Part shown: positions 14,604-17,495 of the stretch, piece by piece
How positions within the stretch are numbered: position 1 is the stretch's first letter
Layout: every line of letters begins with the position of its first letter
DNA from: an uncultured Candidatus Saccharibacteria bacterium
GTDB lineage: Bacteria; Patescibacteriota; Minisyncoccia; Phycocordibacterales; GWA1-40-21
NCBI GenBank assembly: GCA_964455475.1
Contig: CAYVWL010000003.1
Span: 1 to 35,596, forward strand
Length of the DNA: 35,596 nt
Direction: 5' to 3'
Notes under the pieces: generated by a model
Databases searched by the model: none
What the model saw: only the letters and a program-made list of their open reading frames with translations
What the model was told of the DNA's origin: nothing
Position numbers and translations under genes: made by a program

Positions 14604-17495
14604 ATGAAAGAATATAACCATCTGAAAATCGAGCCAAAATGGCGCAAGGTGTGGGAGAAGAAGGGGATAAATAAGACCAAGGATACCACCAAGGGAAAGA
14701 AATTCTACGTTCTGGATATGTTTCCCTACCCATCTGGTGCCGGCCTACATGTGGGGCATCCGCGCGGTTATATTGCTACAGATGTATACTCCCGTTTCAA
14801 GAAAATGCATGGTTTCAACGTCCTGCACCCTATGGGCTGGGATGCTTTTGGTTTGCCGGCTGAAAACTATGCTTTAAAAAATAAAATCCACCCAGACAAG
14901 GCCACCAAGGAAAATGTTAAAAGATTTAAGAATCAAATTTCCATCATTGGTCTGAATTATGATTGGTCCCGTGAGATAAATACCACGGACCCAGCTTATT
15001 ATAAATGGACACAGTGGATTTTTTTGCAGCTGTTTAAGAAGGGTTTGGCCTATGAGAGCTATGAGCCGATAAATTGGTGCCCATCCTGCAAAACCGGTCT
15101 GGCCAATGAAGATCTGGAGGATGGCAAATGTGAGCGCTGTGGCAGTGTGGTGGAGAAAAAGCCAATGCGCCAGTGGGTGCTAAAAATTACGGATTATGCC
15201 GATAGATTGTTAAAGGATATTGATGTTTTGAATTGGCCAGAGTCTATCAAGGAGAGTCAGAGAAATTGGATTGGGCGTAGTGAAGGTTCGGAATTGTGGT
15301 TTAATATTAAAAATTTTGAGGGGAAAATCAGAGTATTTACTACCAGGGCGGATACATTTTACGGTGTCACCTATGTAGTGCTGGCGCCGGAGAATAAATT
15401 AGTGGATGAATTGAAACCATTAATAAAGAATTGGGCGGAGGTGGAAAAATATCGAGCCAGTGTAAAAAATAAAACGGAAATTGAAAGGACCGCAGAAAAT
15501 AAAGAAAAAACCGGTGTCAGACTGGTGGGTGTGGAGGCTAAACACCCACTGACCAAGGAAATTATTCCGGTCTTTATTGCGGATTATGTTTTGAATAATT
15601 ATGGTACCGGCGCGGTCATGGCTGTCCCGGCACATGATGAGCGTGATTTTGCCTTTGCCAAGAAATATAATTTACCGATCAAGCAGGTTATTGCTCCATA
15701 TTTTACTAAATCGGAAGGCGACAGAGACCAAGTTAAGCCAGATAAGGAAACAGTGAAGAGGGTGACGGCATATGCTCTTGTGTTAAACAGAAAGACGAAT
15801 AAATTTTTATGTTTGGACTGGGGTAAATTTGGTTGGCGTTCAGGGATAATCGGTGGACTAGACGAGGGAGAAGATTTTAAGGATGCAGCAATCCGCGAGA
15901 TCCATGAAGAGACAGGCTATACTAATGTGAAATTTATTAGGGAACTAGGTGGTGAGCAACATAATCATTTTTTTGCTGCCCACAAGGATATAAATAGATA
16001 TGGTATTGGAAGAGGAATGCTATTTGAGCTTGTGGATGAAGCTAGAGACACTGTTTCTGCGGAAGATACAAAAAATCACACTACTGTATGGATTGACTCA
16101 GATAAAATGGAAGGATGGTTAAATCTTGAAGCGTTTAAATATATGTGGCAGGTATATAAATCAAACTCGGATTGTTTTATAGGTAATGGTATATTGATCA
16201 ACTCGGCGGAATTTGATGGTTTGAATAGTGAGGAAGCCAAGAAGAAGATTACGGATCTGGCGGACGGGGTGGAGAAGGTGACTTATAAATTAAAGGATTG
16301 GGTGTTTTCTAGACAGCGTTATTGGGGCGAGCCGATTCCGCTTATACACTGCGCAAAATGTGGGGTAGTGGCCGTGCCGGAAAAAGATTTGCCGGTCAAA
16401 TTACCAAAGGTAAAATTTTATGAGCCAACAGGGACGGGAGAATCACCTCTGGCCAAGATTGACAAATGGGTGAATACCAAATGTCCAAAATGCGGTGGCA
16501 AGGGCAAGAGAGAGACAAACACCATGCCTCAATGGGCCGGCTCTAGCTGGTATTATTTACGGTACGTTGATCCCAAAAACAAGAAATCCTTAATTGATAA
16601 AAAGAAAGAAAAGTTCTGGCTAAAAAACGGGGTGGATCTTTATGTGGGTGGGACCGAGCATGCTACCCGGCACCTTATCTATGCGCGCTTTTGGCACAAA
16701 TTCCTATATGATATTGGTGTAGTGAGTGAGAAGGAACCATTTCATCAGCTGAAAAATCAGGGGATGATTTTGGGTTCTGATGCCCGCAAGATGAGCAAGC
16801 GCTGGGGTAATGTGGTAAATCCAGATGAAGTGGTGAAAAATGTGGGTGCCGATACCCTGCGCGTGTATGAGATGTTTATGGGGCCATTTGAGCAGGAGAT
16901 TGCCTGGAGTACGGACAATATGGTGGGCTCACGACGCTTTTTGGAGAAGGTGTGGCGTGTCGGACAAAATTTTCTCCAAAAATCATCCTCTCCACTTAAC
17001 GGAGTACCTAATCGTTCCGAGGATGTTTCTGGAGAAAATTTTCAAACTCTGCTTCATAAAACCATCAAGAAAGTGACAGAGGATATTTTGAATTTTAATT
17101 TCAACACGGCCGTCTCCGCCTTTATGATTTTGGTGAATCTAGCGGAAAAAACAAATATTTCTCGTCGTGACTATGAGACAATATTAAAACTTTTGGCACC
17201 ATTTGCTCCGCATCTCACGGAGGAGATATGGGCTAATTTGGGCAATAGGAAGTCCATTCATTTGGAATCTTGGCCGAAATATGATGAGAAGAAAATTGTT
17301 TCTAACAAAATTGTTATTAGTGTCCAGATAAATGGCCGACCAAGAGCCTCGTTTGAGATGCCCGTAGGGTCTACCCAGGCGGAAGTGGAGAAAGTGGCCA
17401 TGGCCAGAGAGGATGTTTTGAAGTGGGTCACGGGGAAGGAGATCAAAAAGAAAATGTTTATCAAAGAAAAGATTTTGGCTTTGATTACTGATTAG
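14604..17495 (+). CDS. leuS: leucine--tRNA ligase with an inserted Nudix hydrolase domain
   Basis: HVGH and KMSKR motifs. CP1 editing motifs TTRADTFYG and [15 protein letters not shown]. Nudix box [23 protein letters not shown] at 15852-15920. Confidence 0.96.
   Translation: [963 protein letters not shown]

Follow-up and report, generated by a model that had tools for sequence, protein, structure and literature searches.

A Nudix hydrolase domain inserted in the CP1 editing domain of a leucyl-tRNA synthetase from Patescibacteria

Few enzymes are as conserved as the aminoacyl-tRNA synthetases, and extra catalytic domains on the bacterial ones are, to our knowledge, rare and usually a sign of new function. 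The stretch of DNA analysed here, called the window in the following (35,596 nucleotides; contig CAYVWL010000003.1 of assembly GCA_964455475.1), encodes a leucyl-tRNA synthetase (LeuRS) and raises the question of what a second, Nudix-type domain might do inside the proofreading domain of such an enzyme. We found that this LeuRS, which is intact in its other parts, contains a complete, in-frame Nudix hydrolase domain at a β-hairpin turn of CP1, its editing domain. This confirms what a preliminary description of the DNA had proposed; the evidence comes from Pfam, the TIGR00396 model, the alignment with the Thermus thermophilus enzyme, AlphaFold2 and Foldseek.

The inserted domain and its host enzyme

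The LeuRS gene occupies positions 14604–17495 on the forward strand, to which all positions in this section refer, and encodes a protein of 963 amino acids in an uninterrupted frame. The protein scored 1021.3 bits against the NCBIfam equivalog TIGR00396 (leuS_bact), which has a curated cut-off of 548.4, and matched T. thermophilus LeuRS (1h3n) collinearly with an E value of 2.9e-222. Pfam detected tRNA-synt_1, the editing domain tRNA-synt_1_2 (PF13603, 216.5 bits), Anticodon_1, and PF00293 NUDIX. In the 1h3n alignment, residues 1–363 of the query correspond to residues 1–362 of the T. thermophilus protein, and residues 528–724 to 380–579. Between the two aligned blocks lie 164 residues in the window LeuRS versus 17 in T. 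thermophilus. The latter number agrees with the approximately 20 residues that the preliminary description had given for E. coli LeuRS at this point.

The boundaries of the insert emerged from a comparison with the insert-less orthologue P0016. A segment of 160 residues (aa 364–523, positions 15693–16172), recognized as a Nudix hydrolase domain by Pfam, AlphaFold2, and Foldseek, takes the place of an 8-residue hairpin turn in insert-less orthologues. The N-terminal strand of the hairpin, LPIKQVI (aa 357–363, 15672–15692), directly precedes the insert and also forms a strand in the AlphaFold2 model of aa 222–575. Host sequence resumes with the C-terminal strand (aa 524–534, 16173–16205), which aligns to P0016 and, from residue 380 onward, to T. 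thermophilus LeuRS. In the preliminary description, the insert had been placed at 15693–16187. The start of that interval was correct, but its end has to be moved to 16172, because the comparison with P0016 assigns the residues CFIGN (aa 524–528) to the host hairpin and not to the insert.

The Nudix assignment is clear. With the whole protein as the query, PF00293 matched residues 386–502 with 37.6 bits (E 2.6e-9); with the insert alone, it reached 41.8 bits (E 1.3e-10), the gathering score of the family being 21.1. The Nudix box (aa 417–439, 15852–15920), which contains the catalytic glutamates E432, E435, and E436, matches the consensus GX5EX7REUXEEXGU exactly, as had been stated before. It is followed by a subfamily signature (aa 456–465, 15969–15998) that we recognized from the conservation in 293 Nudix segments. 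The signature consists of an aromatic pair, F456/F457, located +17/+18 after the box, and the residues K461, N464, and R465. The guanine-plus-cytosine fraction hardly differs between the insert (0.39–0.41) and the gene (0.41–0.47), in line with the earlier remark on its host-like composition.

An AlphaFold2 model of the insert, computed on an alignment of 31 inserts, had a predicted local distance difference test score (pLDDT) of 95.4 and a predicted template modelling score (pTM) of 0.88. Foldseek returned 502 matches to the PDB at E ≤ 0.001, and all of the 50 matches listed belong to the Nudix family. The best one was 2azw, a MutT/nudix protein of E. faecalis (probability 1.0; TM-score 0.72 when normalized to the query and 0.80 when normalized to the target). 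The corresponding TM-scores for 3i7u, the diadenosine tetraphosphate (Ap4A) hydrolase of Aquifex, were 0.68 and 0.82. MutT1 of M. smegmatis and the Ap6A hydrolase Ndx1 of T. thermophilus also ranked high, followed by RppH, ADP-ribose pyrophosphatases, and NudI. According to the model, the insert is an independently folding domain with the α/β/α Nudix fold. A prediction for CP1 together with the insert (aa 222–575) yielded a pLDDT of 89, a pTM of 0.82, and values of approximately 90 for both linkers. The confident linkers and the pTM therefore suggest that the Nudix domain is held in a defined orientation on CP1 rather than on a floppy tether.

The signature motifs of the synthetase itself are in place, as the preliminary description had maintained. 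The HIGH signature of the class I catalytic core, HVGH (aa 49–52, 14748–14759), is kept in all 120 relatives that we compared, and the KMSKS signature, KMSKR (aa 729–733, 16788–16802), was identified in the sequence and in the T. thermophilus alignment. Within CP1, the threonine-rich editing motif TTRADT (aa 246–251, 15339–15356) aligns to TTRPDT of T. thermophilus. The GTG region of the editing site with the conserved Asp345 (aa 333–348, 15600–15647) is invariant in alignment A2; it includes AHDERD (aa 343–348), which contains the editing aspartate and aligns to AHDQRD of T. thermophilus. Among the 120 relatives, the editing and synthetic motifs are equally preserved in LeuRS proteins with and without the insert, the threonine-rich motif being kept in 94 of 95 insert-bearing and 24 of 25 insert-less ones. 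Thus, the insert is no substitute for amino acid editing. Judged by its motifs, the LeuRS is most likely canonical in all other respects and performs leucine activation, tRNA charging, and post-transfer editing by CP1 as normal. One relative, P0086, has a CP1 domain without the threonine-rich motif (FSAHFEAFAADTF instead of FTTRPDT), and its Nudix insert is still intact.

Distribution, conservation, and turnover of the insert

A full-length search for the nearest database LeuRS clusters (59–83% identity) revealed the insert at the same site in 95 of 120. The distance between the motifs AHDxRD and SRQRYWG separates the two groups: it amounts to 222–231 residues in the 95 insert-bearing proteins versus mostly 73–74, and in a few cases 46 or 87–102, in the insert-less ones. 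The nearest insert-bearing LeuRS proteins derive from JGI, ENA, NCBI, and Logan assemblies, and the named ones belong to Candidatus Paceibacterota. When the GTDB species genomes were scanned, at least 507 relatives were recovered among 600 candidate stretches, almost all of them from Patescibacteria. The names among the matches listed are Paceibacterota, Moran-, Buchanan-, Komeili-, Falkow-, Magasanik-, Nomura-, Taylor-, and Berkelbacteria, as well as Gracilibacteria and "Patescibacteria group". Considering the best 80 GTDB loci, 73 lie inside a LeuRS open reading frame (ORF), and 58 of these 73 are demonstrably located at the CP1 site.

An exhaustive profile search across 1.84 billion cluster representatives gave 179 clusters at E ≤ 1e-30. 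The best 148 cluster representatives (50% identity), on which our tally of hosts is based, comprise 109 LeuRS proteins (full length or fragments), 32 free-standing proteins of up to 260 aa, and seven others. A word-indexed search with the insert alone had returned a single match, the free-standing protein P0001, and was misleading with regard to the rarity of the family, which was uncovered by the full-length and the exhaustive profile searches. Based on these sequence surveys, the Nudix insert in LeuRS is to be regarded as a widespread feature of the Patescibacteria lineage and not as a one-off.

The claim of a new synthetase architecture, which the preliminary description had made, does not hold if new is to mean never seen before. 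Hundreds of patescibacterial LeuRS proteins in NCBI, JGI, and ENA carry the insert, and the database copies already bear precomputed PF00293 hits; the architecture is thus already catalogued, an outcome that the preliminary description had itself named as a refutation. In GenBank, the copies MFA7252500.1, MFA6227126.1, MDD4804210.1, and MFA6404517.1 are named only "leucine--tRNA ligase", an annotation that conceals the Nudix domain and other inserts. NCBIfam holds no dedicated LeuRS-Nudix model, the generic LeuRS and Nudix models being the only ones matched, and a limited literature search did not retrieve a published description of the fusion. We therefore call the architecture undescribed provisionally, although it is abundant in databases.

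Two groups of database entries deserve comment. Free-standing loci that are counted by ORF length with translation table 11 are an overcount, since L023 and L070 are really LeuRS fragments. The locus L023 (3001–3483, Gracilibacteria) appears as a free ORF of 191 aa and turns out to be a LeuRS fragment when UGA is read as glycine. In P0233 and P0262, tryptophan stands at invariant glycine positions (GG as WW, ETG as ETW). All three are signs of genomes with UGA as a glycine codon (code 25) that were translated with the wrong table. The second group comprises six loci, L012, L016, L019, L046, L049, and L071, from metagenome-assembled genomes (MAGs) labelled "archaeon" or "Woesearchaeota". The LeuRS encoded by these loci is of the bacterial type and includes the Nudix insert. 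These LeuRS proteins are 40–46% identical to that of the window over nearly the full length and differ at the C-terminus. They could reflect mislabelled bins or a gene transfer from bacteria of the Candidate Phyla Radiation (CPR) to DPANN archaea.

The same Nudix subfamily also occupies other positions. A second insertion site in LeuRS lies just before CP1, ahead of LNWPES, and accommodates one or two further copies, so that a single LeuRS contains up to three Nudix domains. Examples are P0068 (1558 aa), P0085 (1522 aa), P0122, P0123, P0135, and L059 (1–6489, an ORF of 1735 codons). Further domains are found in other loops of LeuRS: a Ser_hydrolase or alpha/beta hydrolase domain in P0043, P0068, P0074, and P0098, a HAD phosphatase in P0048, P0085, and P0105, and a Ham1/ITPase domain (197 bits) in P0134 (1330 aa). 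Outside LeuRS, a class II prolyl-tRNA synthetase (ProRS), P0208, carries a member of the subfamily between its anticodon-binding and C-terminal domains. Five clusters of such ProRS proteins were found (P0208 and P0270–P0273; 641–674 aa, archaeal type), the insert-less relatives of which bear the names Nanoarchaeota or Woesearchaeota. Among themselves, the ProRS inserts of these five clusters are highly divergent, and R431 is non-canonical in four of them. No host other than a synthetase was seen among the best 148 cluster representatives, where the rest of the "other" group consists of LeuRS fragments, proteins with tandem Nudix domains, and short unknowns.

Free-standing homologues of 160–200 aa occur as well. 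P0001 (162 aa) is named "ADP-ribose pyrophosphatase YjhB (NUDIX family)" in JGI, a generic automatic label with no tested function behind it. Compared with the window insert, it is 41% identical over 84% of its length, and the signature residues are common to both. Unlike the insert, P0001 is encoded by a stand-alone gene that adjoins another Nudix gene; this neighbourhood provided no functional clue.

The sequences of the inserts are divergent, with approximately 35% identity to that of the window (range 26–80%), and yet the RE..EE core of the box is intact in 91 of the 95 CP1 inserts. When all contexts were considered (293 Nudix segments), E432, E435, and E436 were kept in 98–100% of the segments. 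Conservation of 87–100% was observed for a set of residues that includes these glutamates together with R386, G417, G418, T437, G438, Y439, K461 (98%), N464 (99%), R465 (93%), L476, and W496. Position 456 is F or Y in 280 segments (96%) and position 457 in 273 (93%). The subfamily can thus be described by the signature [FY][FY]xxxKxxNR, 17–26 residues after the box. Since the active-site residues are nearly invariant despite the divergence of the inserts, we argue that purifying selection acts on the metal-nucleotide site.

The distribution of the insert is patchy. On a neighbour-joining tree of the host (787 core columns), presence and absence of the insert require at least 16 state changes, and the insert-less P0036 is separated from the insert-bearing P0020 by a distance of just 0.064. 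Insert and host distances are hardly correlated (Spearman 0.11), and the insert evolves faster on average, with a mean distance of 0.60 versus 0.33 for the host. Hosts that are 0.08–0.13 apart carry inserts that are either close (0.07–0.2) or very different (0.63–0.73), hosts at 0.2–0.28 may carry inserts just 0.08–0.11 apart, and there are clades in which the host has diverged more than the insert, as in one case with 0.24 for the host and 0.09 for the insert. At 50% identity, the 95 proteins contain 19 insert types. Because close hosts may have very different inserts and more distant hosts similar ones, the distances indicate a cassette-like turnover without a uniform clock, in which the insert would be swapped by recombination between LeuRS alleles. 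Recombination within LeuRS genes is likewise indicated by the apparently mosaic pair P0032 and P0007, which differ by 0.43 in the N-terminal 215 aa, by 0.07 in the CP1 part, and by 0.11 in the insert. From the phylogenetic pattern, the Nudix module is evidently dispensable and has been gained, lost, and exchanged between close hosts.

Possible functions of the Nudix module

How can a dispensable yet conserved domain serve an essential enzyme? The reading that we favour, with a probability of about 0.5, is that CP1 harbours a true Nudix pyrophosphohydrolase, able to fold on its own and to catalyse, which provides LeuRS with an accessory second active site. The LeuRS would perform normal charging and editing, and the Nudix module would act autonomously: E432, E435, and E436 would bind Mg2+, and the pyrophosphate bond of a nucleoside-polyphosphate substrate would be hydrolysed. 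Preferred substrates would be Ap4A and diadenosine triphosphate (Ap3A) from the synthetase side reaction, or a non-canonical or excess nucleoside triphosphate (NTP). The formation of Ap4A and Ap3A from the aminoacyl-adenylate is an established side reaction of synthetases. We infer from the sequence that the module is enzymatically active and possibly also kinetically coupled to aminoacylation.

The substrate class is probably nucleoside polyphosphates of the Ap4A/NTP type. This assignment is favoured because Ap4A/Ap6A hydrolases (1f3y of lupin, 1.5e-8; 3i7u, 2.7e-5; 1vc8) and MutT1 are among the best characterized neighbours in sequence and structure, because of the aromatic pair, because the basic residues R386, K461, and R465 are conserved in the subfamily, and because synthetases were the only hosts seen. 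Hydrolases of diadenosine polyphosphates (ApnA) reportedly have, as a hallmark, an aromatic residue (Tyr) approximately 16–18 residues downstream of the Nudix box, which F456/F457 at +17/+18 would match. The NCBIfam equivalogs offered no substrate assignment, all of them scoring far below their cut-offs. A membership in the RppH family was rejected, since the best of the PRK00714 equivalogs reached 27.4 bits versus cut-offs of 116–118 and matched the box only. An ADP-ribose pyrophosphatase was rejected as well (TIGR00052, 13.6 versus 79.55; NudE, 16.4 versus 169). ADP-ribose pyrophosphatases have a proline approximately 15–16 residues after the Nudix box; the window insert has N454/H455 at +15/+16, and the family columns consist of A/S/N and E/K/H, without proline.

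Several observations weigh against an active nucleoside-polyphosphate hydrolase at LeuRS. The insert shares 15–20% identity with any characterized Nudix protein, at E values no better than 5e-9, and Ap4A hydrolases, AvrM14, NudC, Dcp2, RppH, ADP-ribose pyrophosphatases, and MutT-like proteins obtain similar scores. In a minority of sequences, the box is eroded (R431 to M/A/K/N, E423 to Q); this applies to a small clade of CP1-site inserts, to many copies at site 1, and to four of the five copies in ProRS. The subclade of P0012, P0014, P0019, P0026, P0049, and P0053 has retained the domain with a degenerate box (GGIESGQ..., R431 to M/A, final G to A/L) and may be catalytically altered or dead, as judged from these replacements. 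Furthermore, the frequent loss of the insert implies that any coupling to the synthetase is not essential, and the Ham1/ITPase, HAD, and Ser_hydrolase inserts make a permissive scaffold fit the data as well as coupling does.

The main rival explanation builds on the latter points. It considers the domain a passenger, that is, a house-cleaning enzyme that resides in a tolerant surface loop for reasons of genome economy or co-expression and has no tie to aminoacylation. Other hydrolases of the house-cleaning type in other LeuRS loops, the free-standing homologues, the repeated loss and swapping of the insert with unchanged LeuRS motifs, and its faster average evolution would all be expected of a passenger. 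However, LeuRS (two sites) and ProRS are the sole large-protein hosts among the best 148 cluster representatives, the model gives the domain a defined orientation on CP1 (pTM 0.82), and there are clades in which the insert has changed less than the host (0.09 versus 0.24). We consider a passenger less probable than the favoured reading. At the opposite end stands the idea that a dedicated Nudix subfamily has repeatedly colonized the synthetase genes of ultra-small symbiotic prokaryotes, where it would be exchanged as a cassette and functionally coupled to the synthetase. Its hosts would be LeuRS, with a maximum of three copies at two sites, and the ProRS of DPANN-like archaea. The coupled module would break down by-products or signals of the Ap4A type, or else act on the 5′ end of the tRNA. 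This reading strikes us as rather doubtful; if true, second active sites of this kind on synthetases would form a new class, with LeuRS as a hub of nucleotide-hydrolase modules (Nudix, Ham1, HAD) in the CPR.

A role at RNA ends would mean that the Nudix domain is brought to the tRNA and removes a 5′-triphosphate or an NAD-type cap, as RppH, NudC, and Dcp2 do. The best PDB profile match is indeed the decapping effector AvrM14 (5e-9), with NudC/NUDT12, Dcp2, DIPP, and RppH also among the matches. An RNA-bound RppH appears in the Foldseek list, the weak top matches in NCBIfam are RppH models, and the host enzymes, from CPR bacteria and DPANN-like archaea, all bind tRNA. We nevertheless consider this role improbable, as the RppH equivalogs match the Nudix box alone, with 27 bits versus 116–118, mature tRNA normally has a 5′-monophosphate after RNase P, and the free-standing and tandem copies are not obviously accounted for. 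That the module is catalytically dead and serves as a nucleotide-binding sensor or an interaction surface with a Nudix fold is very improbable. The domain has been kept where the box is eroded, as in P0019, P0026, and P0049, in many copies at site 1, and in all but one of the five ProRS proteins, but the box of the window LeuRS is perfect, and the metal-binding glutamates would hardly be retained in 98–100% of the 293 segments if the domain neither catalysed a reaction nor at least bound a metal-nucleotide. Even less credit is due to pre-transfer editing, in which the Nudix domain would hydrolyse non-cognate aminoacyl-adenylates beside the CP1 site, an option that the preliminary description had raised next to the still plausible Ap4A. 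The insert is located in the editing domain, and LeuRS and ProRS are both error-prone synthetases. Aminoacyl-AMP, however, is an acyl-phosphate mixed anhydride without a nucleoside diphosphate linked to another moiety and thus atypical for Nudix chemistry, the canonical CP1 residues are equally retained with and without the insert, and the subfamily also exists outside CP1 (the pre-CP1 site, ProRS) and as free-standing proteins. Finally, the patchy presence of the insert and the very different inserts of close hosts give it a superficially mobile look, as if it were an artefact of assembly (a chimera) or a selfish element, such as an intein or some other mobile insertion of which the mature protein would be free. 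This explanation is effectively refuted. A chimera was rejected because the same junctions recur in approximately 95 independent clusters and hundreds of MAGs, that is, across many independent assemblies. An intein was rejected since the insert starts at A364 (APYF) and ends with NSD, followed by CF, without intein junction residues, and the Pfam scan of the window LeuRS contained no Hint/intein families. Direct or inverted repeats flanking the insert were not found beyond chance, and its composition matches that of the gene. Phage origin was rejected as well: a scan of viral contigs for the Nudix subfamily gave no relatives, the 11 matches being weak, partial, and generic to Nudix proteins.

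An accessory Nudix hydrolase on LeuRS would mean that an essential enzyme has a second active site in its proofreading domain, and this throughout a very large branch of uncultivated bacteria. If it acts on Ap4A/Ap3A or on tRNA ends, translation would be linked to nucleotide signalling or quality control in minimal genomes, and a recombinant LeuRS-Nudix protein would offer an experimentally tractable handle. Even as a passenger only, the domain would be an abundant natural case of domain insertion in an essential enzyme with cassette-like turnover, which is useful for questions of protein engineering and genome reduction.

The surrounding genes and the relation to known systems

The rest of the 35.6-kb window has the appearance of an ordinary CPR chromosome and encodes UvrA, UvrC, Ddl, YchF, MltG, MnmA, AlaRS, RpoA, and GrpE. 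Three tRNA genes are located at 7807–7880 (reverse strand), 8763–8836, and 8973–9043 (both forward strand). A GTG-start ORF of 146 aa (8858–9298) overlaps the third of them and is probably not a gene. Directly upstream of leuS, the forward-strand ORF 14020–14598 encodes a predicted membrane protein of 192 aa; directly downstream, the ORF 17572–18606 (forward) encodes a protein of 344 aa with an N-terminal Sigma70 region 4 and a HARE-HTH domain, an unusual architecture of a small transcription factor. The ORF 22087–23070 (forward) combines an ATP-cone with a restriction-endonuclease domain of the Mrr-like type, and it overlaps by approximately 95 nucleotides with that of a PD-(D/E)XK/Cas4-like nuclease (22976–23860, forward). 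The AlaRS (25019–27103, forward) has 694 aa and a TTG start and ends right after tRNA_SAD; it apparently lacks the C-terminal C-Ala part that is typical of bacterial AlaRS. Four sizeable forward-strand ORFs, 10200–11834, 14020–14598, 18680–19963, and 27155–28300, had no Pfam match.

With respect to known systems, the window LeuRS resembles the bacterial enzymes (T. thermophilus, 1h3n/2byt; E. coli, 4aq7) in that it is collinear over the full length and has the HIGH, KMSK, and threonine-rich motifs as well as the editing aspartate in common with them. It differs from the T. thermophilus enzyme by the second, presumably enzymatic domain of 160 residues at the CP1 hairpin turn. A precedent for a class Ia synthetase with an extra enzyme domain is the NCBIfam model NF040702, an IleRS with an N-acetyltransferase domain. 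There, however, the additional domain is a GNAT domain on IleRS, and the model matched the window protein via the class Ia core alone. With free-standing Nudix proteins (2azw, 3i7u, 1vc8, 1f3y, and MutT1), the insert shares the Nudix box, the fold, and the size of approximately 150 aa, with TM-scores of 0.6–0.72 (query-normalized) and 0.79–0.82 (target-normalized, single-domain targets). In comparison with them, it belongs to a subfamily of its own that has no characterized member, is defined by [FY][FY]xxxKxxNR together with R386 and W496, and is mostly embedded in synthetases.

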